Below are positions 2,988-60,580 of a DNA stretch of 64,000 nt, one piece after another. Every line of letters starts with the position of its first letter. Position 1 is the stretch's first letter. This stretch comes from Bacteroidales bacterium (lineage in GTDB: Bacteria; Bacteroidota; Bacteroidia; Bacteroidales; JAHJDW01). Where the stretch lies: positions 2,484 to 66,483 of the forward strand of contig JAQUPB010000002.1 in assembly GCA_029004185.1 (NCBI GenBank), read 5' to 3'. A program made the position numbers and the translations under genes. The notes beneath the pieces are model-generated. The model was not told the origin of the DNA, ran no database searches, and saw nothing but the letters and a program-made list of their open reading frames with translations.

Positions 2988-2990
2988 AAT

Positions 2991-3058
2991 AGTTTCAAGT
3001 TTGAGGTTTGAAGTTTAAAGTTAAAAAGCTGCGAGCTGTGAGGTTCGAGCTACGAATA
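2991..3058. repeat. degenerate 7-8-nt word repeats directly after the prkA stop
   Basis: AGTTTCAA GTTTGAG GTTTGAA GTTTAAA GTTAAAAA, followed by GCTGCGA GCTGTGAG GTTCGA GCTACGAA. Confidence 0.55.
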
Positions 3059-3107
3059 GAAAAATTAATAGTTAAAAAATTGTCTTTAAGGTCAATTTAT
3101 TGAAATA

Positions 3108-3153
3108 AAACCCGTAGGGTTTAATATTGGTAATCCCGTGCTTTAGCACGGGG
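3108..3153. repeat. pair of GC-rich mini-hairpins in the prkA-yeaH spacer
   Basis: AAACCC-GTA-GGGTTT (3108-3122) and CCCGTGC-TTTA-GCACGGG (3135-3152). The reverse complement resembles 24516-24542 (TACCAATATT...CCC.TACGGG). Confidence 0.5.
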
Positions 3154-3208
3154 TAAAGAAATAACAACACATTAAGCGTCGCAAACAAAAAATAAATTAA
3201 TTGTTAAA

Positions 3209-4624: not shown

Positions 4625-4630
4625 ATAATT

Positions 4631-5077
4631 TTAAAGATTGAAAAATTGAAAGATTAAAAGATTATGCAATATAAAAGATTTGAGGACTTGGAAATTTGGA
4701 AAAAAGCTGTAGAAATTGCAGTAATTATTTACAAATTGGCAAATACCGGAAAGTTAAAGAATGATTTTGCAACTAACGACCATTTAAGAAAAACTTCGCT
4801 TTCGATATCGAATAATATTGCCGAAGGATTTGAATACAATAACAACAATCAGTTTATTAAATATCTTTATATTGCAAAGAGTTCAGCAGGAGAACTTAGA
4901 AATCAAGTTTATGTTTTAAAAGAAGCTGAAATTATTGATAAAGAAATATACGAAAATATATATAATAGGTGTTTGGATGTCTCAAAGCAAATTTCAAATT
5001 TCATTAAATATCTGAAAACGTATCAAAAAAACAAAAAGCTTGTCAATCTTTAAATCTTTCAATTTTTTAATCTTTTA
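4631..5077 (+). mobile_element. candidate inserted cassette: inverted-repeat arms enclosing a four-helix-bundle gene
   Basis: The left arm (4631-4663) and right arm (5046-5077) pair over ~31 bp by hand. The segment exactly fills the gap between the yeaH stop and the spoVR ATG. Confidence 0.45.
4664..5053 (+). CDS. four-helix-bundle protein (23S rRNA intervening-sequence protein / Avd-like family)
   Basis: 129 aa with motifs FEDLEIWKKA, SISNNIAEGF and AKSSAGELRNQ, typical of TIGR02436/PF05635-type proteins. Confidence 0.85.
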   Translation: MQYKRFEDLEIWKKAVEIAVIIYKLANTGKLKNDFATNDHLRKTSLSISNNIAEGFEYNNNNQFIKYLYIAKSSAGELRNQVYVLKEAEIIDKEIYENIYNRCLDVSKQISNFIKYLKTYQKNKKLVNL

Positions 5078-6700
5078 ATGGAGCTAGTAAACCAACATAC
5101 AAAGAAAATAATGGAGGAGTGCAAAGTCAGGGCTCGTGCTGCAGGACTTAAGTTCGATAACGAATCGCTTGAATATATTGTATCGAACATAGATATGCTT
5201 GAACTTCATCCAAAAGTTATGATTCCTACTTTATATGATTACTGGGTTAACGATGTTGAAGTTCTTAAAGAAAAAGGAAAATATTCGCTTTACCCGAATA
5301 ATCCTTATGAGACGGTTATAAATTCACGTCCGGCAATTTCCTTTTACAATGATAATAATCCGGATTGGATGAACATAATGATTTTTTATCATGTTCTCGC
5401 TCATATAGATTGTTTTCAGAATAATGTATTATTTGAAAAAACATGGAATGATGATTTTGTAGGGCAGGCGCTTGCCGATAAACGGCTGGTTGCAAATCTG
5501 CGGAGCGAGCATGGACGCTGGCTTGATTATGCAATTGAATTCAGCAGGAATGTAGATAATCTTACGGGATATTTTAAAATATTGTCACTGCAGAATTTCC
5601 CTAAAAACATTGAACCATCGGCAAAAGCGAAATATTATTTTGCTACATTTTTACAGGAAAAAATAAAAATGCCCGCAAATGAAATTTATAAGGAAGTTGA
5701 AAAATTCAATAATTTCATAGAAAAGCAGGGCGATATCGGAGAAACAATGTTTTTCACAGACGTAAAAATTAAACATCCCGAATTTCAGGCATTGTACGAG
5801 CGTTTTGGTGAAGCCGAAAAACACGAAGCAACGGATGTGATGGAATTTATTAAAGATAATTCCCCGTTTTTGAAAAAGGATAATAACAGCTGGATGAAGT
5901 CGGTGATGAGTGTTGTGAGAAATACGGCACTGTATTTTGCACCGCAGATAAGAACGAAAATATTGAATGAGGGGTGGGCAAGTTATTGGCACGACCGACT
6001 TTTCATTTCCGACGACAGAATTAAAGGTCACGAAATAAATTATGCAAAATTAAATGCGGGAGTTACATCATTGAACCGTATTGGTTTAAATCCTTACGCT
6101 ATTGGTTTGCGTTTAATTCAGTATATCGAAATGCTTGCCGACAAAGGAAAACTTGATTATGATTTTCAAAAGCTCGAAGATATTGATAAACGGGGAAGCT
6201 ACGATAAAAAAGCAAAAAAAGGCAATGAAGCAATATTTGAAATCAGAAAAAATTTCTCCGATTTTATGCTGATAAATACTTTTATTAATCAGGATTTTGT
6301 TGATATGCATGGTTTATTTGTTGTCGGAATACGATATAATCCGCAGAGAAATACCAACGAATACTACATAAAAAGCAGGAAAGCCGCAGATTATAAAAAA
6401 ATGCTTCTGGACTCATTGTATCATCCGCCTTACGTAACGGTTAATATAGCCAAAACAAGCGAAGCAAACCTTTATCTCGAACATAAATTTGAAGGAAAGC
6501 AATTGATAAATGAATTCATTTCCGATACAATGCTCGGCATTTCATATTTATGGGGTTCACAGGTTCAGCTTGAAACTACTGAAATAGTTAAGAAAGAACA
6601 GAACCAGCTTTTCAATGCTGAAGAACAGGAAGAGGAATTTGAATACAGAAAAGTGCTTTATACTTATGAAAATAAAAGCATAAATAAAGTTTACTTATAA
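5078..6700 (+). CDS. spoVR: SpoVR family protein
   Basis: 540 aa with the NEGWASYWH motif. It is the last gene of the prkA-yeaH-spoVR arrangement. Confidence 0.85.
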   Translation: MELVNQHTKKIMEECKVRARAAGLKFDNESLEYIVSNIDMLELHPKVMIPTLYDYWVNDVEVLKEKGKYSLYPNNPYETVINSRPAISFYNDNNPDWMNIMIFYHVLAHIDCFQNNVLFEKTWNDDFVGQALADKRLVANLRSEHGRWLDYAIEFSRNVDNLTGYFKILSLQNFPKNIEPSAKAKYYFATFLQEKIKMPANEIYKEVEKFNNFIEKQGDIGETMFFTDVKIKHPEFQALYERFGEAEKHEATDVMEFIKDNSPFLKKDNNSWMKSVMSVVRNTALYFAPQIRTKILNEGWASYWHDRLFISDDRIKGHEINYAKLNAGVTSLNRIGLNPYAIGLRLIQYIEMLADKGKLDYDFQKLEDIDKRGSYDKKAKKGNEAIFEIRKNFSDFMLINTFINQDFVDMHGLFVVGIRYNPQRNTNEYYIKSRKAADYKKMLLDSLYHPPYVTVNIAKTSEANLYLEHKFEGKQLINEFISDTMLGISYLWGSQVQLETTEIVKKEQNQLFNAEEQEEEFEYRKVLYTYENKSINKVYL

Positions 6701-6706
6701 AAAAAC

Positions 6707-6778
6707 GCCACAGATTCGCAGATTATAAAACTACTCTTTTTTAAAATATTGTGTAAATTTAATCTGTGAATCTGTGGC
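6707..6778. repeat. GCCACAGATT-family palindrome (copy 1), likely terminator of spoVR
   Basis: GCCACAGATTCGCAGATTA (6707-6725) pairs with TAATCTGTGAATCTGTGGC (6760-6778). The stem is 19 bp with one mismatch and the loop is 34 nt. It starts 7 nt after the spoVR stop. Confidence 0.65.
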
Positions 6779-6803
6779 AATTTTGATACGCAATATTTGT
6801 TAT

Positions 6804-7490: not shown

Positions 7491-7778
7491 ATGTCTGAAA
7501 AAGAAATAAAATCAAAATTAAATCCTTCTCTGTTCTGGGAATTTGATTTTAAAAAAATTGACCTAAAAAAAAACAAACCGCTTATAATTGAAAGAGTTGT
7601 TACAAGGGGTGAATTGGATGAATTTCTTACTATTCTGGCATATTATGGCGAGAAATCGATAAAAGAAGAAGTGATAAAAATCCGTAATCTTGATAAATAT
7701 ACTGTCAATTATTTTCATTTGGTTTTTAAAATACCAAAAAAACAATTTTTATGTTATACAAAGAGACAGTTGGATTAA
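7491..7778 (+). CDS. DUF6922-like small protein, putative antitoxin partner of the AbiEii-type NTase
   Basis: 95 aa with LFWEFDF...IIERVVTRGELDEF...YYG. It overlaps the downstream nucleotidyltransferase gene by 28 nt. Family assignment is from memory of the motif pattern. Confidence 0.55.
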   Translation: MSEKEIKSKLNPSLFWEFDFKKIDLKKNKPLIIERVVTRGELDEFLTILAYYGEKSIKEEVIKIRNLDKYTVNYFHLVFKIPKKQFLCYTKRQLD

Positions 7779-8395
7779 AAATTTTTAATCTTATTAAAGA
7801 AATTCAAGGCTTTAAAAAGTTTAGTAAATTTTATCTGGCTGGCGGAACTGCATTGAGTTTGCAATTCGGTCACAGAAAATCAATAGATATTGATTTATTT
7901 ACAGAAAAAGATTTCAATCATATTGAAATAAATAATTTTTTAAAAGAAAAATATAAAAACAGATATAAAAATTCTTTTTTAGATATTAATTCCTGCGGAG
8001 GTTTTATTGATGGAATTAAAATTGATATATTAGCCCATAAATATAAATTGCTTGATAATCCTATAGAAAAAGAAAACGTTAAATTTCTCGGATTAAATGA
8101 TATTTCTGCAATGAAAGTAAATGCTATTTATTCTGATGGTTCAAGAGTTAAGGATTTTATTGATATTTATTTTTTGCTTGATAAAATGAGTTTAAACGAT
8201 ATTATTGAGAATTTCAGAAGAAAATATAATTCAGAAAATTCTTATTATGCTACAAAAAGCATTGTATATTTTGATGATGTTCGTTTAAATGATTTTCCTG
8301 TTATAACAGATAAAAAAATCAAATGGAAAGATATTAAATCAAGATTAATTAAAACACATGAAAGTATTATTAAAAACAAATTAAAAAAGAGTTAA
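7751..8395 (+). CDS. nucleotidyltransferase, AbiEii/AbiGii toxin family (DUF1814-like, short form)
   Basis: 214 aa with N-terminal NTase signature YLAGGTALSLQFGHRKSIDIDLF (G-G-x...D-x-D). Confidence 0.7.
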   Translation: MLYKETVGLKIFNLIKEIQGFKKFSKFYLAGGTALSLQFGHRKSIDIDLFTEKDFNHIEINNFLKEKYKNRYKNSFLDINSCGGFIDGIKIDILAHKYKLLDNPIEKENVKFLGLNDISAMKVNAIYSDGSRVKDFIDIYFLLDKMSLNDIIENFRRKYNSENSYYATKSIVYFDDVRLNDFPVITDKKIKWKDIKSRLIKTHESIIKNKLKKS

Positions 8396-9154: not shown

Positions 9155-11488
9155 TTAATATTTTCTCACCAAATCTTTATCGAGCACATAAACGCAAATA
9201 TGTTTTGCTCCTTCCTGTGTATAGCCGAATTTGCATTTAAGATTTGTGATAAGCATTTTGATTTCTTTCTTCAGTTTTTCGTCGTAAGCATTGAAAGTTT
9301 GTGTGCCGAAATCAATTATTCCTCTGCGGAAATTAGCGTTATCAATGTATGGAGTAAGTGAATTTTCTTTAAGGTTTCTTGTAAACTTATTGAAAAGATG
9401 TTTGTACTGTTCGGTATCGGTAATTTTCTTTCCCGAAAGTTTTATTTCCTGCGATAGTGTTTTTGAGACGTATTCGCTTTGCATGTCCTTTCTGAATTGT
9501 ATTCTTTGTTCTTCCGAACTTGTTGTTCCGAGAAACATTGCTTCGAAATTTTTGAAGAAATTATCTGAAATTTCAATCAAATGGCCTGTATTGGTACATT
9601 TCACTTTTTCGCCGGGTTCATAATTTATTGCAAAAAGATAATCCTGTATATCGTTTGAAATCTGGGTTTCGTTGAAAAAATACATAGATTCTTTAACTTC
9701 CTGCAATACGTTGAAATCATACAAATCCTCGAGCGATTGAATAAATCCTTCGGGAATATATTCGACAAGCTTTTCACTGTCCTGCAGGAAAAATGATTTT
9801 ACCATTTCCATTGTTACAGGCTTTCCTGTTTTTGTATATTTTGAAATGAATGAATTGAAAACATTAAGAGATTGACGTCCCGAAATGCCATGTGCACCCT
9901 CATTTTCAGAATCGGCAATTATTTCTTTTCTTGTCTGCCTGTCGAAAGTTTTTATGTCTTCTTCGGAAAGCCAGGTCGGGATTTTGCCGGTATAAATGTC
10001 CATTTTCAACAACATCAGGTTCCTGTCGATATACTTTCTGTATTTCTCCGAATCCTGTATCCATCGGTTTATTGCGGGCGAATCTAAATTCAATCTTGTG
10101 GAAATAATTATTTTTGCAAAATTACTCAATACTCTCGGCAGGAATTTAGAAGTAACCGATTCGCTGAACTTGTTTTTATAAATTGCCACTTCGGTGTTAT
10201 AATCGAGAATATAAGGAATACAAACTGTTATAACCCTGTCCTGAAATGATTTCACGTTTTCATAATGCCGTTTATCTTCGGGATTTATCAAACCCACGAA
10301 TAATGTTTTTATTCTTTCCTCAACAAGTTCGACTTTATGAACGCCATCGCTGATAATGCCGTGCAGATCAATCAGTCTTTCAACATTGTGTTCTTTAATA
10401 TCCATTATTGTATGTACGCCGTTGTTGGTGCTTGCGAGATAAGAATGAATGTATTTTATTTCATCATTTTTAAATAATTCATTTATATTTTTCTGCAATG
10501 TAGGATTCGTTATTGGTTTTTTCATAACTTCATCACCGGGATTATAAACGCTTACACCGCTTCCGAACTGCCTGCTGAAATCCATCCTTCTTGCGTTTAT
10601 CATGTTGAAAATTTCGAGAGGGTCGCCGACTTTATTAATAAGGTTATTATAAATAGAGCTACAGATATGACAAGGAGAATCTTTTAAAATCCATTCATAT
10701 TCTTTATCATTAAAAATTTTATGCTTGAATTTTTCATCGGAAATAAGTTCGTCGAGAAAATTTTTTCTGAATGCTTTTGGTATTTGAAGAATAGGATGGT
10801 CGTGGCTCGGACATGGAACATCCAGAAACTTTTTCGGGTGAGTTGTTTTCAGATATTCTTCAGAAGATTGCTTGAGATTACTTTTTCCGCTTTCTTCTTT
10901 GCCGAAAATATTTATTTGATTTTGAAATTCCTGAAAATTGGAGATTTTATCAACATCAAGCCGCCAGTATGTTTCAAACATAAAACCCTCAGGAGTTTTA
11001 GTGTATGCTTCAAGCTGAAGAAGGAGATTATTTAGAAATGTGCTTTTGCCGCTTCCCGGAGGTCCTTCGAAAAGGTAAATATGATTGTTTTGTATACCCT
11101 TTTTAAAACTCTTTGCAAGATTCATAAACCGATTTGCGAACAAGCGGTCTGCAAAGAAAGGGTCATCACAATCCCGTACAAACATTTTCGAAAAATCGTA
11201 TCGTACAAAACCTATTGAATCGTTTGAAACTTCGTATTCATCTTTGCCTTCAGGAACAAAGTAATGAACCATGTCGTGAAAAAGCTGGAAAATATTCCTG
11301 AGTGCAAGTTCGGGCTGGTCGGCAACCAGATAAAGAAAATCGTTAAAAAGAATAGGCAGGCGGTTTTCTTTTTCGCGGATGTCATTGCTCAGGTTTATCA
11401 ATACTTCAAGGCGCTTACCTCTGCCCTGGATTTCTTCGAAATTTTCGATTTTTTTTACTTTGGTTTTCGGCTTTTTTTGTTTTGACAT
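9155..11488 (-). CDS. divergent PrkA-like AAA+ ATPase/kinase paralogue
   Basis: 777 aa with Walker A GPPGSGKS. The segment VPCPSHDHPILQIPKAFRKNF resembles the B. subtilis PrkA CPMHEDPLHLIPHHLRDDF region as I recall it. Confidence 0.6.
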   Translation of the reverse strand: MSKQKKPKTKVKKIENFEEIQGRGKRLEVLINLSNDIREKENRLPILFNDFLYLVADQPELALRNIFQLFHDMVHYFVPEGKDEYEVSNDSIGFVRYDFSKMFVRDCDDPFFADRLFANRFMNLAKSFKKGIQNNHIYLFEGPPGSGKSTFLNNLLLQLEAYTKTPEGFMFETYWRLDVDKISNFQEFQNQINIFGKEESGKSNLKQSSEEYLKTTHPKKFLDVPCPSHDHPILQIPKAFRKNFLDELISDEKFKHKIFNDKEYEWILKDSPCHICSSIYNNLINKVGDPLEIFNMINARRMDFSRQFGSGVSVYNPGDEVMKKPITNPTLQKNINELFKNDEIKYIHSYLASTNNGVHTIMDIKEHNVERLIDLHGIISDGVHKVELVEERIKTLFVGLINPEDKRHYENVKSFQDRVITVCIPYILDYNTEVAIYKNKFSESVTSKFLPRVLSNFAKIIISTRLNLDSPAINRWIQDSEKYRKYIDRNLMLLKMDIYTGKIPTWLSEEDIKTFDRQTRKEIIADSENEGAHGISGRQSLNVFNSFISKYTKTGKPVTMEMVKSFFLQDSEKLVEYIPEGFIQSLEDLYDFNVLQEVKESMYFFNETQISNDIQDYLFAINYEPGEKVKCTNTGHLIEISDNFFKNFEAMFLGTTSSEEQRIQFRKDMQSEYVSKTLSQEIKLSGKKITDTEQYKHLFNKFTRNLKENSLTPYIDNANFRRGIIDFGTQTFNAYDEKLKKEIKMLITNLKCKFGYTQEGAKHICVYVLDKDLVRKY

Positions 11489-18681: not shown

Positions 18682-18728
18682 GCCACAGATTAAAGAATTG
18701 CTTTTTTTGTAATCTGTGAATCTGTGGC
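18682..18728. repeat. GCCACAGATT-family palindrome (copy 2, shortened left arm)
   Basis: GCCACAGATTA (18682-18692) ... TAATCTGTGAATCTGTGGC (18710-18728), 9 nt after the stop of the upstream ORF. Confidence 0.6.
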
Positions 18729-18754
18729 TAATTTGATTAGTCTAATTATTCGTT

Positions 18755-22324: not shown

Positions 22325-22378
22325 GCCACAGATTCACAGATTATAAAAAAGTGATTTTATAATCTGTGAATCTGTGGC
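22325..22378. repeat. GCCACAGATT-family palindrome (copy 3, perfect 24-bp stem, 6-nt loop)
   Basis: GCCACAGATTCACAGATTATAAAA-AAGTGA-TTTTATAATCTGTGAATCTGTGGC. It lies between the divergent tgt and OmpA-like gene starts. Confidence 0.7.
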
Positions 22379-22472
22379 GGTTTTATTTTTACAAATTTTA
22401 GAAAGCACTTGACATAGTTGTTTTAATGTTATATGTTTGTTTTGAAAAAGAATATCAATAATAAATAAAATA

Positions 22473-30296: not shown

Positions 30297-31319
30297 ATGG
30301 GACTCTTTTCCTTTTTAACAAAAGAAATAGCAATTGACTTGGGTACAGCCAATACTTTGATTATATATAATGATAAAGTTGTAGTTGATGAACCGTCTAT
30401 TGTAGCTATCGACAGGACAACAGGCAGGATTATGGCGGTGGGTAAGCAGGCGCAAATGATGCATGGTAAAACCCACGAAAATATTAAAACCATTCGTCCA
30501 TTGAAAGATGGCGTTATTGCCGATTTTCAGGCAGCAGAACACATGATCCGCGGAATGATAAAAATGATAGGCACTCATAATGGCATATTTGCTCCATCAC
30601 TGAAAATGGTTATCTGCATACCATCGGGAATCACCGAAGTTGAAGAACGTGCTGTCCGCGACTCTGCCGAACATGCAGGTGCAAAGGAAGTGCGTCTTAT
30701 TCATGAACCCATGGCTGCTGCAATAGGCATTGGACTTGATGTTCTTGAACCCGAAGGAAGAATGGTTATTGATATCGGCGGCGGAACCAGCGAAGTAGCT
30801 GTCATAGCACTTGGCGGTATCGTATGCAACAAATCGGTTCGAACTGCAGGTGATGTTTTTAATTACGATATTGAAGATTACATGCGCCGTCAGCATAACA
30901 TACTTGTGGGCGAAAGGTCGGCTGAAAAAATAAAAATTGAAGTCGGCGCCGCAATCGCCGAAATAGATAATCCTCCACCCGATTATGCAGTCCATGGCCG
31001 CGACCTTATGACGGGCATTCCGAAAGAAATTTATGTTTCTTATGTTGAAATTGCACACGCTCTTGACAAGTCAATTCTGAAGATTGAAACGGCAATTCTT
31101 AATGCACTTGAAATGACACCTCCCGAATTATCTGCCGATATTTACCGTACCGGAATTTATCTTGCAGGCGGCGGCGCACTTTTACGAGGACTTGATAAAC
31201 GAATTTCACTTAAAACAAAACTTCCGGTACATCTGGCGGAAGACCCTCTGCGTGCCGTAGCCCGCGGAACAGGCATCGCCCTCAAAAACTTCGATAAGTT
31301 CCCGTTCCTGATAAAATAG
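30297..31319 (+). CDS. mreB: rod shape-determining protein MreB
   Basis: 340 aa with IAIDLGTANT, VIDIGGGTSEVAV and LAGGGALLRGLD. Confidence 0.9.
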   Translation: MGLFSFLTKEIAIDLGTANTLIIYNDKVVVDEPSIVAIDRTTGRIMAVGKQAQMMHGKTHENIKTIRPLKDGVIADFQAAEHMIRGMIKMIGTHNGIFAPSLKMVICIPSGITEVEERAVRDSAEHAGAKEVRLIHEPMAAAIGIGLDVLEPEGRMVIDIGGGTSEVAVIALGGIVCNKSVRTAGDVFNYDIEDYMRRQHNILVGERSAEKIKIEVGAAIAEIDNPPPDYAVHGRDLMTGIPKEIYVSYVEIAHALDKSILKIETAILNALEMTPPELSADIYRTGIYLAGGGALLRGLDKRISLKTKLPVHLAEDPLRAVARGTGIALKNFDKFPFLIK

Positions 31320-31390
31320 TTTTCAGTTTCCGGTCTTCAGTTCCCAGTTAAACTTCGACATTCGACATTCGGTGTTCGATATTCGATATT
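31319..31390. repeat. two runs of degenerate word repeats starting at the mreB stop
   Basis: GTTTTCAGTTTCCGGTCTTCAGTTCCCAGTT, then CTTCGACATTCGACATTCGGTGTTCGATATTCGATATT. Confidence 0.55.
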
Positions 31391-31437
31391 TTTTGTATTT
31401 CAAGACATAGCTCGTGTGTTTGCTGTCCTCTCCTTTT

Positions 31438-34398
31438 TTAAGGAGGGGATAAAGGGGAAGTTTTCACAAACTTTCCAATACTCACTCCATTCTCATTCAC
31501 AATTTTTATAAAATAAATTCCGCTTGATAAATCGCTAACATCCACTCGTAGCTCATGGCTCACAGCTTGAAGCTTTTTTATTTCCTGCCCGCTAATATTA
31601 TAAATTGCAATTGTGCTTTGCTTTGAGGTTTGCGGGAGTTCGATTGTTATTTTATCGGTTGCGGGGTTTGGATAAACATTAAACAAAATATTTTCAGTAA
31701 AAGATTTTTCTTTTATGTCCATATTAGCATTGTACGACCATACAACATAAACCGAATTATCGGCTGTTTTGTTGTTTCTATAAGGCGTCCAGTCGTTACC
31801 AAATATTTCGTAGTTTCTTTTGGAAAAAGGAATTGCATTATCGGAGTAAAGTTTAAAACCTTTGCGGAGTCTAAATTTAACGGCAATCCCGCCATCATTT
31901 AAAATTATACTGTTTACCGGAATAAAATATTTTTCATAACTGTTCAGGGGTTTTAAAGAAAGGGAAGTTAAATCAATTGCAAGCTCCGGAGTTAATGGGT
32001 TTATTTTATCAATAATAGCATTTGTATCAATTTTAAAAAGCTGAATGTAAGCATTCAGATTACTGTCAGGAGCATCAGTTGTCCGGTAAATCCAGAGACC
32101 AACAGAATCAATAGTAATAGGAAAAATATCTTTGCATGGTAAAAAATCAACAGCGCCGGTATCAAAACTAAATGAGTATTTCCATGGTACACCAAAAATT
32201 GCAGGAGGAGAAATCCATGAAAATTGTTTTTTTACGGCAGATGAATCCACTACTGCCACTTCAATTGTCAGGCTGTCGTTATTTGTTTCAATATCACCCG
32301 GAGTTTTCTGTTTTACTTTTACAGCGTATGTTTGTAAATTTGAAAAATTAAAATCATGATTTAAAGTTATTATTTTTGAATCTCCTGCACATATTGAATC
32401 TATTAATTCTTCGGAAGAATTAACAGCAGTGCTGTCGTTTAATTTTATTCCTGCACTTACGTTTATGTTTGTAGCATCAATGGTTCCGGTGTTTGATATT
32501 TTTGCTTTTATTTTTTTTGTTCCCTTTAAAATTATATTTCCTTTATTATCATTTTTATCGCAATCTTCAAGTGAAACCCATTCAACAGAAACATCTTTAA
32601 ACAAAGGATGACTGTGGGTATAATAACCAAGAATGCATAAACCCGGTAAAAATGTTTCGCCGTTATTAAAAATTGTATCATGTCGGAGTTGCGGATTATT
32701 ATTGTTTAACCATGTATAGTCGATTATTCCAGAAACATCTTCACATCCTATTTTCAAATCACTTGTTGTTATGCCCATGAATGCTTCATAATTCTGATAT
32801 TGGAACTTAAAATTCCCGTCTTTATAATATATTGCCTGCATTGTTATTTTTCCCGAAAAACCGGGTGCCGCTTTCTGGTAGGAGGAATAATCTTTCCACG
32901 TCACAATAAATTTATCGGTATCGGTTCTGTAAAATAATTTTGAACTGTCAGCAGGAAATAAATCGGTTAAGAATGGTGCAATAAAATTATTCGGTAAATC
33001 GGTTGAAGGCATTGCGCCGAAAGGAGAGGATAAAGCATCGGAAGAACTGAAACCGATGTAACCATTATCGCCGACATAAAATTTGTTTATTTTATAATTA
33101 TCTCTGAAAAAAATAAAATCCTGCCCGATGTTAAACGGACCTTTTACTCCGTCGTTTGTAAGATTATTAACTTCTGTACCGCTTCCATCGGTTATATCAA
33201 GCCAGTTATACACAAGCAGAGGATATTTTGAAACAGAATCAGTATCTAATTTATTTGATATTAGTTTATAAGCATCGTCGTTTTCGGGAGGAAGAAATTT
33301 AGGTTTTATACCAGTTACCATCAGATTATTTACAGTAAAATTATAACTCGAAGGATTTAAATTTCCGATTGCATAATAACCATTGTAATCTCCCGACCAT
33401 CCCCAGTTGAAATGAAATTTATCATCACTGCTTCTGTATCCGTCGCAAACAAAGGCGTGACCGCCGCTGCCGCCGGTGCCATTATATAAAACCGGACGAT
33501 TTGAATTAAGTTCATTTATGATTTCATTTTTCCATGCATAGTCATTCGGGAAGTCATATTTTGCCTTTACTTCAACAGAGTTTGAGTAATTAAAATAATT
33601 TTTCAGAGCATATGGAACAGTTGTAATAAACGAGAACGAACCCGTAGCGCCGTAATTCATATCAACGGATACTCCGCAGTGATAAATTAAAGTGGCAACA
33701 GCAGAATTGCTCGAAATAATAGAATCAGGCATCGAAGTCCAGTTATAAAATGTATTTCCGAAATCGGCATAAACCGAATCATTAACACCGAGAAAATATT
33801 TATGGCTTCCTGTTCCTTTTTCAGGATAGCTGTGATATTTTAAAATCTGAGCCATTGCAGTAGCTAAACATCCTGCAAATGTATGATATCCCGGACCGGC
33901 TGAATCAACCGGACACATTTCATTATAATAAATGTTCTGGTTCCATTTGGTTGTTAGCAAAGGTTGAATGTCTTCGGTATTTTTTTTGAAAGATAGCGCA
34001 ATTATTTTTTCCCATTCTTCTTTGGTTTGCGAGTTGCTTATATTATTATCAATAATAAATTTTATTTCTTCACAATAATTATCGAACCATGATTTAACTG
34101 CGGGATTATTTATTTTTTGTTCAAACTTACCTTCGCTCGAATGTGCTAACACAGGAATAACGGCATCGTCGGCAGAAACAATTACAAAACCTCCGCCTCG
34201 GAAATTAAAAACATAAAAAGCTGTTGTGCCGTTATAAGTATTTTCAAATTCTGATGAAATGGGGTAATCGTTTTTTGATGAACTAAAATATTTGTAGTAG
34301 TTGACAGCAATCTTTCTTGCATAATCTTTTGTAACAGGTGCGCTGTAAAGCAAACCCGAAGCAAAAAAAATAATCAGAAGAAAGATGTTTCTTTTCAT
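31438..34398 (-). CDS. C10 family cysteine peptidase (paralogue 1) with long unassigned region and T9SS C-terminal domain
   Basis: 986 aa with signal peptide and an N-terminal Spi/propeptide-like domain (YVFNFRGGGFVIVSADDAVIPVLA). Catalytic Cys context is AGCLATAMAQILKYH, His context GGHAFVCDGY, plus FNWGWSG. T9SS CTD is VYPNPATDKITIEL...GIYFIKIV. Confidence 0.8.
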   Translation of the reverse strand: MKRNIFLLIIFFASGLLYSAPVTKDYARKIAVNYYKYFSSSKNDYPISSEFENTYNGTTAFYVFNFRGGGFVIVSADDAVIPVLAHSSEGKFEQKINNPAVKSWFDNYCEEIKFIIDNNISNSQTKEEWEKIIALSFKKNTEDIQPLLTTKWNQNIYYNEMCPVDSAGPGYHTFAGCLATAMAQILKYHSYPEKGTGSHKYFLGVNDSVYADFGNTFYNWTSMPDSIISSNSAVATLIYHCGVSVDMNYGATGSFSFITTVPYALKNYFNYSNSVEVKAKYDFPNDYAWKNEIINELNSNRPVLYNGTGGSGGHAFVCDGYRSSDDKFHFNWGWSGDYNGYYAIGNLNPSSYNFTVNNLMVTGIKPKFLPPENDDAYKLISNKLDTDSVSKYPLLVYNWLDITDGSGTEVNNLTNDGVKGPFNIGQDFIFFRDNYKINKFYVGDNGYIGFSSSDALSSPFGAMPSTDLPNNFIAPFLTDLFPADSSKLFYRTDTDKFIVTWKDYSSYQKAAPGFSGKITMQAIYYKDGNFKFQYQNYEAFMGITTSDLKIGCEDVSGIIDYTWLNNNNPQLRHDTIFNNGETFLPGLCILGYYTHSHPLFKDVSVEWVSLEDCDKNDNKGNIILKGTKKIKAKISNTGTIDATNINVSAGIKLNDSTAVNSSEELIDSICAGDSKIITLNHDFNFSNLQTYAVKVKQKTPGDIETNNDSLTIEVAVVDSSAVKKQFSWISPPAIFGVPWKYSFSFDTGAVDFLPCKDIFPITIDSVGLWIYRTTDAPDSNLNAYIQLFKIDTNAIIDKINPLTPELAIDLTSLSLKPLNSYEKYFIPVNSIILNDGGIAVKFRLRKGFKLYSDNAIPFSKRNYEIFGNDWTPYRNNKTADNSVYVVWSYNANMDIKEKSFTENILFNVYPNPATDKITIELPQTSKQSTIAIYNISGQEIKKLQAVSHELRVDVSDLSSGIYFIKIVNENGVSIGKFVKTSPLSPP

Positions 34399-34433
34399 AA
34401 AAAATAATAACGATCGTCCGAATAAAATGTTTT

Positions 34434-34527
34434 ATCAGGGCTGAAGCCCTTATTATATGCGTTTTCTATAACCCCAGCCTTAAGGCTGGGGTTAATAAAT
34501 ATAACTCCATTTTGGACTTTAGTCCTG
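34434..34527. repeat. three-hairpin element (copy B)
   Basis: ATCAGGGCTGAAGCCC ... CCCCAGCC-TTAA-GGCTGGGG ... GGACTTTAGTCCTG. Its modules are homologous to 55-147, with diverged linkers. Confidence 0.6.
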
Positions 34528-34538
34528 CTTGCAACTTA

Positions 34539-34625
34539 TTAAATTAAATAACCTTTTGTAACTGGCGAGCTATAAAGCAAACCAGAAGCAAAAAAAATAA
34601 TCAGAAGAAAGATAGGTTTTTTCAT
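34539..34625 (-). pseudogene. duplicated 5' fragment of a C10 peptidase gene (signal peptide only)
   Basis: 34548-34634 is ~87% identical by hand alignment to 34321-34407, the 5' end of paralogue 1. It encodes MKKPIFLLIIFFASGLLYSSPVTKGYLI then a stop. Confidence 0.65.
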
Positions 34626-43283: not shown

Positions 43284-46088
43284 TTAATAAAAATTTAATT
43301 CAAGCCAGTTTTTACCAATTCTCATATCTACATCAATGGGAACAGTAGTTTTAATGCTGTTTATCATTTTGTCTTTTATAATTGGTGATACGATTTCCAA
43401 TTCATCTTTTTTGACGTCAAAAACCAACTCATCATGAACCTGAAGTATGAGTTTTGACTTGAATTTTTTGTTAATAAATTCCTTATAAATATTTATCATG
43501 GCAATTTTAATCATGTCGGCAGCCGAACCCTGAATCGGAGCATTTATTGCATTTCTTTCGGCATATCCTCTCACTATGGAGTTGCCCGAATTAATATCTC
43601 TCAGGTATCGTCTTCTTCCCATTATTGTTTCCGTATAACCCTTCTGGCGAGCCATTTCAATGCTTTTGTCCATGTATTTTTTTACGCCGGGATATTTTTC
43701 AAAATATTGTTTTATTATTTCGCCTGCTTCTTTTCTCGGAATTCCAAGCCGTTCCGATAATCCAAAACCCGATATCCCGTATATTATTCCGAAGTTAATT
43801 GTCTTTGCATTTCGCCTCATTTCCTTTGTTACATTTTCAATACTTACTCCATAAACTTTCGAAGCGGTTGCAGTATGTATGTCAATTCCCTGCCTGAATG
43901 CTTCGAGCATATCCTTGTCTTCACTCATTTCTGCCATTATCCTTAATTCTGTCTGCGAATAATCCGCTGAAAGCAAAAGATAATTTTCATTTCTCGGAAT
44001 AAATGCTTTTCTTATTTCTTTTCCTCTTTCTGTTCTTACGGGAATATTTTGAATATTCGGATTTGTGGAACTCAATCTTCCCGTGGAAGTAACAATCTGG
44101 TTGAAAGAAGTGTGTACTCTTCCTGTTCGCGGATTTACCAATAGTGGAAAGGCATCAATATAGGTGGATTTGAGTTTTGTAAGTGAACGGTAATCTAAAA
44201 GTTTCGGAATTATTTCATGTTTGTTGATTAATTTTTTCAAAACATCTTCGCTTGTTGAATATTGTTTTGTTTTTGTGAGCTTAGCCTTTTCAATAATATT
44301 GAGCTTTTCAAAAAGAATTTCACCGAGTTGCTTTGGTGATGAAATGTTAAATTCAACACCTGCGAGTTGAATAATTTCTTTTTCAAGTTGTTTTACTTCT
44401 ACTTCGAGCAGCACGGAATAATCGTTTAAAAATTCCGAATCAATTTTAATTCCTTCTGCTTCCATTGCCGCAAGTACCGGAGTAAGCGGTGCTTCTATTT
44501 CCTCAAAAAGTTTTAATGCATTTGATTCTGCAAGTTTCGGTTCAAAAGTATTTTTGAGTTGCAAAGTAATGTCGGCATCTTCGCAGGAATATTCCTTGAG
44601 AATTTCATCAGGAACAGTGCGCATGCTCTGCTGGTTTTTTCCTTTTGCTCCTATTAAAGTTTCGATTGAAACCGGTTCATAATCCAAATATGTTGAAGCA
44701 AGAAAATCCATATTGTGCCGCGATTCCGGTTGCAAAACATAATGTGCAAGCATTGTGTCAAAAAGTTTTCCCCCGACTTCAATATCATACCATTTTAAAA
44801 TTGCAATGTCAAATTTTATGTTCTGTCCGACCTTTTCGATTTTTTCATTTTCGAAAATTTCTTTGAATTCATTGCATATTTTATATGCGTCGTTATAATT
44901 TTCGGGAAAAGGAATGTAATATGCTTCGTGCGGTTTAAATGAAAATGACATTCCTACTAATTCGGAATTATGCGAATCCAAGCCGGTTGTTTCGGTATCA
45001 AAACAAAATAATTTTTGTTGTTTTAAAATCGAAATAAATTCTTTTCGTTTTTCTGATGTATCAATAAGAATGTAATTGTGTGCAACTGAATTTATGTTTT
45101 CCTTTGGCACAAAAACATTTTGTTCTTCTGTAATTATTGGTGGTTCTTTGTTCTCAGAAGAAATAGTTTCTGTATTTTTTTCTTCGGTTTCTGTTGTTTC
45201 TTCAAATGTCAATGGCTTATCGTATAAAATTCTCTGAGCGAGACGGCGGAATTCAAGTTCCGTAAAAAGACTCTGCAATGCATCTTTATCCGGTGATTTT
45301 AATTTTAATTTTTCTTCGTCGAAATCAACCGGAACATTGGTAATTATTGTTGCCAGTTCTTTCGACATTATCGCAAGCTCCGTATTTTTTTCGATTTTTT
45401 CTTTTAATGTATCTTTTAATAAATGTGTCGACTTCAATAAATTTTCCACATTGTCATATTCGGCAATGAGTTTTGTTGCAGTTTTTTCACCTATGCCGGG
45501 TATTCCCGGAATGTTATCAACCTTATCGCCCTGCAGTGCGAGTATTTCTATAATCTGCTCCGGGCGTTTTATTCCGAACCTTTCGCAAACTTCTTTCACT
45601 CCTAAAATTTTTGCCTTTTCGCCAAACTTTGCCGGTTTATAAATAAATACTTTATCACTTACAAGTTGTCCGAGGTCTTTGTCCGACGTCATGATATAAG
45701 TTACAAAATCTTTTTGTTCGGCAACTTTTGCAATAGTTCCTATTACATCATCGGCTTCGTAACCGTCGAGCATCAATACTGAAATATTGAATCCTTCCAA
45801 GAGTTTTAATATATGAGGAAGAGAATTGATTATATCTTCGGGAGTTTCTTCGCGGTGTGCTTTGTATTCGGCAAATGAGTCGTGGCGGACTGTAGCTGCC
45901 TTTGTATCAAAGCAAACCGCCATGTGAGTTGGTTTTTCTTTTTCAAGAATTTCAACCAGCGTATTTGCAAAACCATAAGTTGCCGAAGTATTTATTCCTT
46001 TCGAAGTTATGCGCGGATTTTTATTCAACGCATAATATGCGCGGTAAATCAGCGACATCGCATCAAGAAGAAAAAGTTTTTTTGGCAT
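43284..46088 (-). CDS. polA: DNA polymerase I
   Basis: 934 aa with N-terminal 5'-3' exonuclease (LFLLDAMSLIYRAYYAL). Polymerase motifs are RRNAKTINFGIIYG and LQVHDELVF. Confidence 0.9.
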   Translation of the reverse strand: MPKKLFLLDAMSLIYRAYYALNKNPRITSKGINTSATYGFANTLVEILEKEKPTHMAVCFDTKAATVRHDSFAEYKAHREETPEDIINSLPHILKLLEGFNISVLMLDGYEADDVIGTIAKVAEQKDFVTYIMTSDKDLGQLVSDKVFIYKPAKFGEKAKILGVKEVCERFGIKRPEQIIEILALQGDKVDNIPGIPGIGEKTATKLIAEYDNVENLLKSTHLLKDTLKEKIEKNTELAIMSKELATIITNVPVDFDEEKLKLKSPDKDALQSLFTELEFRRLAQRILYDKPLTFEETTETEEKNTETISSENKEPPIITEEQNVFVPKENINSVAHNYILIDTSEKRKEFISILKQQKLFCFDTETTGLDSHNSELVGMSFSFKPHEAYYIPFPENYNDAYKICNEFKEIFENEKIEKVGQNIKFDIAILKWYDIEVGGKLFDTMLAHYVLQPESRHNMDFLASTYLDYEPVSIETLIGAKGKNQQSMRTVPDEILKEYSCEDADITLQLKNTFEPKLAESNALKLFEEIEAPLTPVLAAMEAEGIKIDSEFLNDYSVLLEVEVKQLEKEIIQLAGVEFNISSPKQLGEILFEKLNIIEKAKLTKTKQYSTSEDVLKKLINKHEIIPKLLDYRSLTKLKSTYIDAFPLLVNPRTGRVHTSFNQIVTSTGRLSSTNPNIQNIPVRTERGKEIRKAFIPRNENYLLLSADYSQTELRIMAEMSEDKDMLEAFRQGIDIHTATASKVYGVSIENVTKEMRRNAKTINFGIIYGISGFGLSERLGIPRKEAGEIIKQYFEKYPGVKKYMDKSIEMARQKGYTETIMGRRRYLRDINSGNSIVRGYAERNAINAPIQGSAADMIKIAMINIYKEFINKKFKSKLILQVHDELVFDVKKDELEIVSPIIKDKMINSIKTTVPIDVDMRIGKNWLELNFY

Positions 46089-57466: not shown

Positions 57467-60400
57467 ATGAAAAAATTTACCTTTTTATTCGTATTGTTTG
57501 TAATTATGATTACAAACGCATTTGCACAACTTAATGTTATTGTTAATGCAAATAACGATACTATTTGTGCTGGAAGAAATGCAACGCTGACTGCAGTTGC
57601 AACAGGAGGGCAGGCACCATATCAATATTCGTGGAGCAATGCTGCCACAAATTCATCAACACAGGTAATCCCAACCACAACGACAACTTATTTTGTTACT
57701 GTCACTGACAACAATTCAGTTACAGCTACAGGAAGTATTGTTATAACCGTTAACCCGAAACCAACTATTACAGCAAATAACGCAACTATTTGCGGAATGG
57801 GACAAGTTGCCACGCTTTGTGCGAGCGGGGGTACTAATTATACATGGAGCAACGGCGCTACTACAACCTGCAGAACTGCAAGTCCTCCGAATACAAATAC
57901 ATATTATGTAACCGGAACGAATGAAAATGGCTGCTCAAATACAGCAAGAGCAATTGTAACTGTTTCATCACCCCCCCAGCTGAATGTTAATAATGCATCA
58001 ATATGTATAGGAAATTCTGCTAATATTTGCGCAAGCGGACAATCGATATCATATACATGGTCAACAACCGAAACAGAAACCTGTATTTCGGTGGCACCTA
58101 CAGTTACAACATCTTATTATGTTACAGGAACAAGAACATCCGGCTGTACAAATACCGCAAGGTCAGTAGTGACCGTAAATGATATTCCGGTTATTACTAT
58201 TAAGAATAATAAAGATTCAGTTTGCGGAGGAACTGTCGTCAATCTGAATGCAACCGGTGCCAATAATTATACGTGGAGTACAATGCAAACCGGTTCAAGC
58301 ATAAATGTCTCACCAACGACTTCTACGGTATATAGTGTTGTTGGTTCAGTAGGCGGATGTACTGCCAGTTCGAGTATTTCTATTACCGTATACCCGATTC
58401 CTATTGTTACTGCAACAGGCGGTTCAATTTGCGGAGGAAGTGGTTTTGTGAATGTTTGTGCTGATGGCGCTTTAGATTATACATGGAATAACGGACAAAG
58501 TGTAAGTTGCTTTACGGTCAGTCCGAGTGTTAGTACAACATATACTGTCACGGGAACAAGTGCGGACGGATGTACCAAAACTGCAAGAGCAGTTGTTGGA
58601 GTTGGAACAACTCCTACTATAACAGCAGCAAATGGAACTAATTGCAGTGGAGTAGCAATAACTATTTGTGCCAGCGGAGGAAATTCCTATACATGGAGTA
58701 CAGGAAATACAGGAAATTGTGTTTCAGTTAATCCTACGGTTACAACAACTTATTTTGTCACTGGCGCCAATACAAGCGGTTGCACAAATCTTGATACTGC
58801 AATAGTCACTGTTAAGCCCCTGCCTGATGTCGGAGCAACAGGCGGAATAATTTGCAGGGGTAGTTCAATATTTATTTGTGTAACAGGCGGAAATACATAC
58901 ACGTGGAGCACGGGACCAACGCAAAGTTGTATATCAGTTGCACCAACTGCAACAATAAATTATACTGTCAGCGGAACAGGAGCTAATGGCTGTATCGCCA
59001 CTGCCGTATCAAATGTAATTGTTAATCAACGTCCCGTAATTACTGCTACAGGAGGTGCAATATGCAGTGGCAGTGGTTCAGTCACAGTTTGCGCTAGTGG
59101 GGGAACTGATTATTCATGGAATAACGGTGAAACTACAGATTGTTTTAGTGCCAGCCCAACGGTTAATACAACATATACTGTTACCGGCACAGATGAAAAT
59201 ACCTGTACAAATACTGCTAAAGCTGCTGTTGTTATCAGCACGACACCAACAATTACAGCAACAGGAGGAGGTACATGTGAAGGAGTATCAATTGGTATTT
59301 GTGCAAGCGGTGGAAACACATACACATGGAGCAATGATTCAATAGGCAGTTGCATAACAGTCAATCCGACAGCAACTACAACATATACAGTAACTGGAGC
59401 TAACGCAAGCGGTTGCGTTAATACAGCAGATGCCGTTGTTACAACTCTTAGCCTTCCAAGCATTTCTTCAACCGGAGGAATGATTTGTCTCGGTTCATCT
59501 ATTTATATTTGTGTTACCGGAGGGACTGCTTATACATGGAGTACAACTCAAACACAAAGTTGTATTTCAGTTGCACCAACTGCAACAACAAATTATACTG
59601 TTACCGGAAGCGGAACAAACGGCTGTATAAATACTGCCGAATCGAATGTGATAGTGAATCAGCCACCCACTATAACTGCTACGGGAGGAGCAATGTGCAG
59701 CGGAACTGCTTCGGTTGTTATCTTTGCCAGCGGTGGAATTGACTATACATGGGACACAGGAGAAACAACAAGCAGCATTACAGTTAGTCCAACTGCAAGT
59801 GTGACATATGCAGTTACAGGCGTTGATGCTAATTCATGCAGCAATACCGCCGAAGCAGTTGTTGTGATAGGTCAAACGCCTACAATTACTGCAAATAACG
59901 GAAGTATCTGCAAAGGATCTTCAATCAGTATTTGCGGCGGCGGCGGCGATACTTATACATGGAGCGAAGGAACTTCAGGAATGTGCGCGATTGTTGCCCC
60001 AACAATTACAACTACTTATACTGTAACAGGTACTAATGCTGACGGTTGTACCAATACCGCAAATGCCGTAGTAACTGTTAAGCAATTACCAAATGTTATT
60101 GCTTCAAATGATACAGCAATTTGCATTGGTTATTCTGCTGACATTTGTGCAAGTGGTGGTGTTTCTTATACATGGAGCACAATTTCGACAATGACATGTA
60201 TTTCAGTAAACCCTACTGTTACCACAACATATTATGTCACGGGTACAGGCACGAATGGTTGTAAAAAAGCAGACGACGTTGTGATAATTGTAAATAGTTG
60301 TGTAGGTATTACTGAAAATAATAATAAAATTGGTTTGAATGTATTTCCTAATCCAACCGAAGAAAACATTAATATTATTTTCAATATTGAAAAACCAATG

Positions 60401-60580
60401 GGAATATCTGTAAAATTAGTTAATCTGAGCGGACAGGTAGTTTATAGCGAAAAACTGGAATATTATAAAGGCACATATTCAAAGGCAATCAGTTTGCTTG
60501 ATAAAACCGGAGGAGTGTATTATTTGCAGATAATAACAGACAATACTACGCTTACTAGAAAAATAATTCTGGTAAGATAA
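57467..60580 (+). CDS. T9SS-sorted surface protein made of 13 tandem Cys-containing Ig-like repeats
   Basis: Signal peptide, then 13 units each with ICxG ... (I)CASGG.(T)YTWS ... C(I)xV.P..TTTY.VTGT...GC.NTA. T9SS CTD is LNVFPNPTEENINIIF...GVYYLQII. Confidence 0.8.
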   Translation: MKKFTFLFVLFVIMITNAFAQLNVIVNANNDTICAGRNATLTAVATGGQAPYQYSWSNAATNSSTQVIPTTTTTYFVTVTDNNSVTATGSIVITVNPKPTITANNATICGMGQVATLCASGGTNYTWSNGATTTCRTASPPNTNTYYVTGTNENGCSNTARAIVTVSSPPQLNVNNASICIGNSANICASGQSISYTWSTTETETCISVAPTVTTSYYVTGTRTSGCTNTARSVVTVNDIPVITIKNNKDSVCGGTVVNLNATGANNYTWSTMQTGSSINVSPTTSTVYSVVGSVGGCTASSSISITVYPIPIVTATGGSICGGSGFVNVCADGALDYTWNNGQSVSCFTVSPSVSTTYTVTGTSADGCTKTARAVVGVGTTPTITAANGTNCSGVAITICASGGNSYTWSTGNTGNCVSVNPTVTTTYFVTGANTSGCTNLDTAIVTVKPLPDVGATGGIICRGSSIFICVTGGNTYTWSTGPTQSCISVAPTATINYTVSGTGANGCIATAVSNVIVNQRPVITATGGAICSGSGSVTVCASGGTDYSWNNGETTDCFSASPTVNTTYTVTGTDENTCTNTAKAAVVISTTPTITATGGGTCEGVSIGICASGGNTYTWSNDSIGSCITVNPTATTTYTVTGANASGCVNTADAVVTTLSLPSISSTGGMICLGSSIYICVTGGTAYTWSTTQTQSCISVAPTATTNYTVTGSGTNGCINTAESNVIVNQPPTITATGGAMCSGTASVVIFASGGIDYTWDTGETTSSITVSPTASVTYAVTGVDANSCSNTAEAVVVIGQTPTITANNGSICKGSSISICGGGGDTYTWSEGTSGMCAIVAPTITTTYTVTGTNADGCTNTANAVVTVKQLPNVIASNDTAICIGYSADICASGGVSYTWSTISTMTCISVNPTVTTTYYVTGTGTNGCKKADDVVIIVNSCVGITENNNKIGLNVFPNPTEENINIIFNIEKPMGISVKLVNLSGQVVYSEKLEYYKGTYSKAISLLDKTGGVYYLQIITDNTTLTRKIILVR
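58400..60290 (+). repeat. 3 x ~630-nt super-repeat (each of three Ig-like units) inside the 1037-aa gene
   Basis: Units starting near 58400, 59030 and 59660 are collinear. For example, 58920-58980 and 59556-59615 are nearly identical. Confidence 0.7.

Follow-up and report, generated by a model that had tools for sequence, protein, structure and literature searches.

A tandem array of four C10 peptidase genes with type IX sorting domains between mreB and polA of a Bacteroidales genome

Introduction

Four consecutive genes encoding peptidases of family C10 (clan CA) lie between mreB and polA in a 64,000-nucleotide stretch of DNA from a Bacteroidales bacterium (contig JAQUPB010000002.1 of assembly GCA_029004185.1, forward-strand positions 2,484 to 66,483), which is referred to here as the window and to which all coordinates below apply. 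The founding member of family C10 is SpeB of Streptococcus pyogenes, and the I69 family of prodomains is named after Spi. C10 proteins of the Bacteroidetes fall into a long group (>600 aa), which clusters with SpeB and interpain A (InpA), and a short group (Bfp/Btp) of lipoproteins whose genes are transcribed together with those of staphostatin-like inhibitors (PMC2873492; PMC3462683). What the C-terminal domains of the long proteases do was described as undetermined by Thornton et al., 2010 (PMC2873492).

This report describes the four genes, named P1 to P4, on the basis of profile searches, structural models, substitution analysis and comparison with related loci. An earlier sequence-only reading, made from the nucleotide sequence and its open reading frames (ORFs), had proposed a tandem array of secreted C10 proteases at this position, and its claims are taken up where the corresponding results are given.

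Layout of the locus

The array comprises P1 (31438–34398, 986 aa, MDD5569610.1), P2 (34716–37400, 894 aa, MDD5569611.1), P3 (37736–40408, 890 aa, MDD5569612.1) and P4 (40511–43183, 890 aa, MDD5569613.1), all on the minus strand, as are the features of these genes described below. The ORFs have exactly the positions and lengths given in the sequence-only reading, and all four are already named accordingly in GenBank, on a MAG contig of 67,866 bp, P1 as "thiol protease/hemagglutinin PrtT" and the others as "C10 family peptidase." The P1 side is flanked by mreB (30297–31319, plus strand, convergent with P1) with purH farther out, and the P4 side by polA (43284–46088, minus strand) with an acyl carrier protein phosphodiesterase gene and gpsA farther out. 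The spacers measure 317 bp (P2–P1), 335 bp (P3–P2), 102 bp (P4–P3) and 100 bp (P4–polA). They contain no ORF of 60 aa or more, in agreement with the earlier statement that inhibitor genes are not interleaved, and the only coding trace in them, 28 aa long, is a relic of the signal peptide of P1.

The protease head

All four proteins match the full Peptidase_C10 profile (PF01640, positions 1–194; 178.8–191.1 bits, cut-off 26) and, over aa ~19–113, the Inhibitor_I69 profile (PF13734; 52.8–65 bits, cut-off 25). The I69 prodomain and the C10 domain lie at 42845–43129 and 42158–42715 in P4, and at 34063–34341 and 33373–33945 in P1. The catalytic codons are those of Cys176 (42656–42658) and His314 (42242–42244) in P4, Cys175 (39884–39886) and His313 (39470–39472) in P3, Cys181 (36858–36860) and His318 (36447–36449) in P2, and Cys177 (33868–33870) and His314 (33457–33459) in P1.

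The closest solved structures are those of interpain A (E 2e-39 for P4 and 9e-50 for P1), followed by SpeB. The Cys of the G-C-(V/L)-(A/S) motif falls in the catalytic column of InpA, which holds Ala in the C154A mutant (3bb7) and Cys in the wild type (3bba), and it is also aligned with the GCVATA of SpeB; the GHAF of the paralogues is aligned with the GHAF of both structures and their FNWGW with VNWGW. FNWGW and W(N/D)Q motifs occur in all four paralogues, and an alignment of 70 full-length homologues shows W157, Q159, C176, H314, N331, and G333 to be invariant. On these profile and alignment data the four ORFs are members of family C10. A profile search had been named in advance as the test of this assignment; with 179–191 bits against a cut-off of 26, and with the proposed Cys and His aligned with the dyad of SpeB and interpain A, the assignment stands. 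The motifs quoted in the sequence-only reading are likewise present throughout, with small deviations in P4 (GCVSVA for GCVAVA, FSPSG for FSPGG) and in P1, where the prodomain motif is more divergent than in the other paralogues (FNFRGGGFVIVSADDAVIPVLA).

The AlphaFold2 model of P4, computed from the 70 homologues, has a mean predicted local distance difference test (pLDDT) value of 86. Its predicted papain-like fold superposes on mature SpeB and InpA (Foldseek against the PDB; template modelling (TM) score 0.82–0.84, root mean square deviation (rmsd) 1.9–2.3 Å, ~250 residues), and in the alignments of the model to the zymogens 3bb7 and 1dki 340–378 columns are covered.

Sorting domain and putative signal peptide

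The final ~75 residues of all four proteins match Por_Secre_tail (PF18962; 50–63 bits, cut-off 27), and all four match the NCBIfam model TIGR04183 (42–58 bits, cut-off 23) for the type-A C-terminal domain (CTD) of type IX secretion system (T9SS) cargo. This domain lies at 40526–40747 in P4 and at 31465–31677 in P1. The combination of prodomain, C10 domain and T9SS sorting domain that had been claimed for each gene is therefore found above the profile cut-offs in four of four. The N-termini, inspected by eye, consist of M(K/R)K, a hydrophobic stretch and FA|KP or YS|AP, the bar marking the predicted cleavage site, at which there is no lipobox Cys.

A further T9SS cargo gene occurs elsewhere in the window (57467–60580, plus strand, 1037 aa) and encodes a Por_Secre_tail and a CHU_C-associated Ig-like domain. 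It contains ~11 tandem repeats of ~210 nt (70 aa) and has a very high G+C content at the second codon position (0.58).

The middle modules

The segment between protease head and sorting domain is of one kind in P2–P4 and of another in P1. A PKD domain occupies aa ~373–445 of P2–P4 (41849–42061 in P4), and the ~340 residues that follow it contain five to six Asp-box motifs in each protein (pattern S/T-x-D/N-x-G-x-T/N-W), spaced ~50 aa apart. The best PDB match of this part of the P4 model (Foldseek) is Ycf48, with a TM score of 0.72–0.74, ahead of GH74 and sortilin Vps10 propellers, which match less well; the Pfam profile PSII_BNR scores 25.6 bits, just under its cut-off of 27. Motifs and fold match together identify the module between PKD and CTD as a predicted seven-bladed Asp-box propeller like Ycf48 (40799–41830 in P4), and the architecture of P2 and P3 is the same. 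This architecture is common, with hundreds of homologues; among the full-length homologues listed, ~65 have 100% coverage at 40–57% identity, and one comes from the cultured Williamwhitmania taraxaci. A literature search found no dedicated study on C10-propeller fusions or on Peptidase_C10 with T9SS.

The middle 530 residues of P1 have no Pfam match except a marginal one to CARDB. Searched exhaustively with HMMER, 1.84 billion cluster representatives yielded 1561 relatives of this segment, which is therefore not an orphan. Most relatives are stand-alone proteins of ~610 aa consisting of signal peptide, module and CTD, and others are giant proteins in which the first sub-domain is repeated. In a set of 50 aligned members, a T9SS CTD is present in 46, a NIDO match in 12 and a CARDB match in 9. 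P1 itself has no match to the NIDO profile (PF06119), which is matched by its relatives P0138 (75 bits) and P0129 (58 bits; cut-off 25), so that the first extension domain (~32728–33216) is regarded as NIDO-like by transitive homology only. It is followed by a CARDB-like domain (~32239–32577) and a third beta-sandwich (~31729–32232). The P1 model is confident in these extension domains, and its CARDB match has a TM score of 0.69–0.75; the other fold matches are to generic beta-sandwiches and carbohydrate-binding modules only, and therefore no specific function is drawn from the model. Among the 150 best-scoring representatives the module is joined to a C10 head only in P0121 and P0123, hence the P1 architecture is rare. 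The NIDO/CARDB module is thus Pfam-poor yet common in T9SS cargo.

Origin and related loci

The G+C content of P2–P4 is 0.37–0.40, that of P1 0.342 and the mean of the window 0.34; the earlier claim that the genes are richer in G+C than their surroundings is correct for P2–P4 and does not hold for P1. The excess is found at the second codon position (0.44–0.49, compared with ~0.30 in the neighbors), and third-position G+C (GC3) of the array, 0.25–0.28, is within the normal range of the window. The raised G+C reflects a Gly/Ala/Thr/Pro-rich protein composition and not foreign origin. Mobility genes are absent, the borders of the array contain no integrase, transposase or tRNA gene, and the neighbors are housekeeping genes.

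In a relative known from a metagenomic contig, with 88% identity in PolA, three C10 genes come directly after polA: a P3/P4-like, a P1-type and a P2-type gene, the order of the last two being reversed relative to the array described here. The far flank on that contig is a two-component system. A comparison of the mreB–polA interval, as had been proposed, thus recovers C10 genes next to polA and no mreB on the other side. A frameshift divides the P2-type gene of this relative (L001, 9066–11767) into two ORFs (231 and 668 aa); the gene is a pseudogene unless the break stems from the assembly. A more distant homologue is single-copy and lies in an unrelated context. Across 80 loci of GTDB species representatives, at least 10 have two to four adjacent co-directional C10 genes (four in L062, three in L054 and in L082), and tandem C10 arrays are therefore a recurring pattern.

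Divergence and exchange among the copies

P3 and P4 share 81% protein identity and P2 is 58.5% identical to either, while P1 is 45–49% identical to the others over the first ~370 aa and has in addition a weak CTD match; the order of similarity proposed earlier is thereby borne out. The ratio dN/dS (Nei-Gojobori), a calculation that had also been suggested, is 0.19–0.26 for every pair and 0.12–0.27 for the individual domains of P3/P4, and all copies are therefore under purifying selection.

The last ~190–200 nt of P3 (37735–37927) and P4 (40510–40702), which encode the CTD, are 99–100% identical at the DNA level, with an exact run of 142 nt, compared with ~80–85% in the rest of the genes; dS in the CTD is 0.05 and elsewhere 0.4–0.8. 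This tract indicates a recent gene conversion of the sorting domain.

A separate block of the P3/P4 propeller (38585–38920, P3 aa ~497–608) shows 2 synonymous and ~13–15 nonsynonymous differences against a gene-wide dN/dS of ~0.23. The nonsynonymous differences lie mostly at family-variable positions, and at residue 569 of P3 a family-conserved propeller Trp has been lost (W to S). Since dS also varies in patches along the genes, the pattern suggests that a conversion older than that of the CTD took place here and that selection was then relaxed or diversifying. When 68 outgroup sequences were used to polarize the P3/P4 differences, little was learned, as the majority of these differences fall at family-variable positions, and positive selection in this block is therefore only a suggestion.

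Two further observations bear on the history of the array. The prodomain of the P1-type gene in the relative is 69–78% identical to the P2–P4 types and only 44% to P1, and this mosaic identity matrix points to exchange among paralogues. In the P2–P1 spacer, an 83-nt segment (34548–34630, minus strand), situated between the P2 terminator and a three-hairpin element described below, is 88% identical (E 3e-19) to the 5′ end of P1 (34321–34403). It covers 5 nt of the P1 leader and the first 26 codons, encodes MKKPIFLLIIFFASGLLYSSPVTKGYLI and a stop, that is, a 28-aa signal-peptide stub, and is probably all that is left of a fifth copy that has been lost. Taken together, the array would have grown by tandem duplication, with recombination and gene conversion keeping the copies partly homogeneous while the binding modules diverge.

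Transcription signals

Terminator-like hairpins are located after P4, P3 and P2, where they had been predicted. The hairpin after P4 (40451–40493) has the core stem GGTTCCGTT/AACGGAACC, a 9-nt loop and a folding energy of -23.2 kcal/mol; it is extended by an A-run/T-run and was missed by the consensus scan for terminators, as its loop exceeds 8 nt. Those after P3 (37685–37718, -22.4 kcal/mol) and P2 (34653–34685, -24.1 kcal/mol) consist of a 15-bp stem followed by a T-run. The z-scores of the three against shuffled sequences are -6.6 to -7.6, and no comparable terminator follows P1. A separate search for promoters gave one exact TAnnTTTG in the vicinity of a gene start, the Bacteroidetes -7 box TATATTTG (43247–43254) with TTTG 23 nt upstream, 63 nt before the start of P4. 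Another exact TAnnTTTG lies 237 nt upstream of P2, and there is none upstream of P3 or P1. P3 starts ~45 nt past the P4 hairpin.

Comparison with known systems

Likeness to SpeB extends to the aligned Cys47, His195 and NWGW and to the TM score of 0.82, with an rmsd of 2 Å, obtained for the P4 model. SpeB is a Gram-positive, Sec-secreted, single-domain protein of ~40 kDa with a separate spi gene, and differs from P1–P4 in having neither a T9SS domain nor binding modules. The P2–P4 module shares its predicted fold with Ycf48/HCF136 and the sortilin Vps10 propellers. Ycf48, the best match, is a protein- and peptide-binding scaffold with ~15% identity to the P2–P4 propeller, and its context is entirely different.

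The best match in both sequence and structure is interpain A of Prevotella intermedia (PDB 3bb7 and 3bba; E 1e-39 to 1e-50, TM score 0.84), which like P1–P4 has an N-terminal prodomain, the same Cys/His/Trp arrangement and a long form with C-terminal extensions. InpA owes its latency to a prodomain in cis and is activated autocatalytically (PMC2873492). It differs in that its identity to P1–P4 is only ~30–34%, in that it comes from a host-associated oral pathogen, and in that its solved fragments contain no known PKD, Asp-box propeller or NIDO-type module. PrtT and periodontain of Porphyromonas gingivalis are C10 peptidases with a T9SS CTD and hence T9SS cargo (PMC5445135). The NCBI name that P1 shares with PrtT is a matter of annotation only, not of sequence comparison, and the prtT and periodontain genes have distant locus tags (PG1427, PG1548) and are not in tandem, unlike the array (PMC5445135).

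Paralogous C10 families likewise occur in other Bacteroidales, namely Bfp1–4/Bfi in Bacteroides fragilis and btpB-btiB-btpC-btpZ in B. thetaiotaomicron, where several C10 genes are clustered (PMC3462683; PMC2873492). The Bfp/Btp proteins are lipoproteins of <500 aa with inhibitor genes, some of them on mobile elements (PMC2873492), whereas P1–P4 have 890–986 aa, a T9SS CTD and a core-genome site, and lack a lipobox and inhibitor ORFs. As P1–P4 are of the long InpA/PrtT type with a cis prodomain, the lack of staphostatin-like inhibitors is expected, and latency would presumably be provided by the I69 prodomain in cis.

Interpretation

The locus is best read as encoding four functional C10 protease zymogens that are cargo of the T9SS and that form a family expanded locally and passed on by vertical descent, a reading to which a probability of about 0.85 is given. 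By analogy with the systems above, a Sec signal peptide would direct each protein to the periplasm, where it would fold into a latent zymogen whose Cys-His active site is blocked by the I69/Spi-like prodomain, so that no separate inhibitor would be needed. The T9SS would then recognize the type-A CTD and move the protein across the outer membrane, with removal of the CTD, leaving it surface-attached or released. Removal of the prodomain, either autocatalytically as in interpain A or in trans, would yield the active protease, whose Cys-His dyad would cleave substrates with the aid of the binding modules. The non-catalytic parts (PKD and propeller in P2–P4; NIDO-like, CARDB-like and beta-sandwich domains in P1) would serve as spacers and as substrate- or ligand-binding parts. 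The likely physiological role is to break down proteins outside the cell, whether for nutrition or to remodel surfaces, in an environmental anaerobe.

Several points weigh against this reading. The proteins are known here from the sequence of a metagenome-assembled genome (MAG) alone; the signal peptides of P1–P4 were assigned by eye only; and no por, spr or other T9SS machinery genes were seen in the 64-kb window. The AlphaFold2 model of P1 is poor across the C10 domain, because the alignment is shallow there, and the assignment of P1 as a protease therefore depends on its sequence. The functions proposed for the propeller and the NIDO-type module follow from fold resemblance only.

Four other explanations have been considered, which concern the origin, integrity, expression and activity of the array. 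The notion of an 11.7-kb horizontally acquired island carrying virulence-type proteases draws on the overall G+C of P2–P4 (0.37–0.40, window 0.34) and on the presence of some B. fragilis C10 genes on mobile elements (PMC2873492), but GC3 is typical of the window, the excess G+C lies at the second codon position, the borders between purH, mreB, polA and gpsA are free of integrase, transposase and tRNA genes, and in a related MAG the corresponding polA junction is likewise occupied by C10 genes. On GC3 and synteny this explanation is rejected as very improbable. The array is resident DNA, and the "protease island between mreB and polA" of the sequence-only reading is right as to position, provided that it is not taken to mean foreign DNA. 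Only slightly less improbable is that some copies are decaying or have become non-catalytic adhesins, the array being a partly redundant remnant. Signs of decay can be found in the P1-type 5′ relic of the P2–P1 spacer, in the frameshifted P2-type gene of the relative, and in the P3 propeller with its lost Trp569 and its ~13–15 nonsynonymous versus 2 synonymous differences from P4; set against them are four intact ORFs, each with Cys, His, WxQ and NWGW, and a dN/dS of ~0.2 in every domain.

Expression of the four genes as one operon, or at least co-transcription of P4 and P3 by read-through, is harder to dismiss and is considered unlikely rather than remote. All four genes are co-directional, the exact TAnnTTTG/TTTG promoter stands near the start of P4 only, and the ~45 nt between the P4 hairpin and P3 contain no recognizable promoter. 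Strong hairpins with T-runs after P4, P3 and P2 (-22 to -24 kcal/mol, z about -7) speak for interruption, however, and promoters that do not fit a strict consensus could be accommodated in the spacers of 317 bp (before P1) and 335 bp (before P2). The separate transcription units claimed earlier are thus plausible, on predicted terminators and a predicted promoter: the three strong terminators agree with the claim, and the consensus promoter is present upstream of P4 only. A bifunctional protease-glycosidase, with the P2–P4 propeller acting as a GH74- or sialidase-like enzyme, is about as improbable as the foreign island. The fold search does return GH74 xyloglucanases and a BNR-repeat "putative glycosyl hydrolase," and there is a weak NCBIfam match to F510_1955 family glycosylhydrolase; yet the best and most complete structural match is Ycf48, a non-enzymatic single propeller, GH74 enzymes need two propellers and reach a TM score of ~0.3 or less here, and the NCBIfam and Pfam matches are far under their cut-offs.

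As C10 peptidases, cis prodomains, T9SS CTDs and Bacteroidales C10 clusters are all established, the reading of a resident family of T9SS-exported zymogens adds little that is new, and the locus is a real but ordinary gene-family expansion. Its value is rather that of a clean natural example of how a T9SS cargo family grows, in which both protease "head" and sorting "tail" persist, the latter by gene conversion, and the binding modules in the middle are swapped or diverge. The combination of C10, PKD and Asp-box propeller is a very common environmental architecture, with hundreds of homologues, and P1–P4 are reasonable candidates for finding out what the C-terminal domains of long C10 proteases do (PMC2873492). 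More tentatively, and with the odds against it, the I69-C10-PKD-propeller-CTD fusion could represent a widespread, unstudied class of T9SS surface proteases whose propeller captures peptide or protein substrates as in Ycf48 and sortilin, with the tandem copies sub-functionalizing and P1 being a second, rare solution to targeting. The secretion signal would then be kept identical by gene conversion and the propeller would diverge, selection on it being relaxed or positive, as in the block of ~110 codons with 2 synonymous and ~13–15 nonsynonymous differences between P3 and P4, and P1 would be targeted through its NIDO, CARDB and beta-sandwich domains.

A three-hairpin intergenic repeat and other features of the window

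A structured element of three hairpins lies in the P2–P1 spacer between the relic and the P1 start (34435–34528), and a second copy is found at 56–146 of the window. The copy in the array consists of GGGC-TGAA-GCCC, ~20 nt, the perfect palindrome TAACCCCAGCCTTAAGGCTGGGGTTA, a further ~20 nt and GGAC-TTTA-GTCC; the consensus (~95 nt) is GGRC-TAAA-GYCC, ~20 variable nt, TAACCCCNNCCTTAAGGNNGGGGTTA, ~20 variable nt and GGRC-TTTA-GYCC. The two window copies differ by compensatory changes, and such changes occur in all three stems. The central palindrome is present on at least 120 metagenome contigs (loci L085–L204) with a G+C content of 0.28–0.58. Among 63 aligned copies, pair 49–60 is AU in 43, GC in 20 and unpaired in 0, and pair 6–13 is GC in 51, AU in 11 and unpaired in 1, both pairs being at positions left unconstrained by the search patterns. 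The covariation score is 0.21, compared with 0.11 in shuffles and 0.03–0.09 in slid controls. The element lies outside ORFs in 70 of 72 copies, while 76% of random positions are inside ORFs.

No Rfam family was matched anywhere in the window at gathering thresholds, nor was there any meaningful match in the P2–P1 spacer with the limit relaxed to E ≤ 10, and a literature search on the sequence of the element found nothing relevant. The idea that it is a general companion of C10 loci is ruled out, since 1.12 Mb of DNA from other Bacteroidota C10 loci yielded no copy. A weak covariance-model match at 3079–3152 is a different hairpin. The element may be an undescribed intergenic palindromic repeat, similar to repetitive extragenic palindromes (REP) or miniature inverted-repeat transposable elements (MITE), or a small structured RNA.

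Other repeats are present in intergenic DNA. The convergent P1–mreB spacer (31330–31400) contains ~5 tandem 7-nt units (ATATCGA/ATGTCGA) followed by GGAACTGAAGACC / GGAAACTGAAAAC, and the motif TAATCTGTGAATCTGTGGC occurs three times in the window (6741–6784, 18691–18734, and 22341–22384). A PrkA–DUF444–SpoVR trio is encoded at 906–6700 (plus strand), and a second, divergent PrkA-like gene at 9155–11488 (minus strand). An AbiEii-type nucleotidyltransferase toxin gene at 7751–8395 (plus strand; G+C 0.22, GC3 0.14) is the only gene of the window with a foreign-looking composition.

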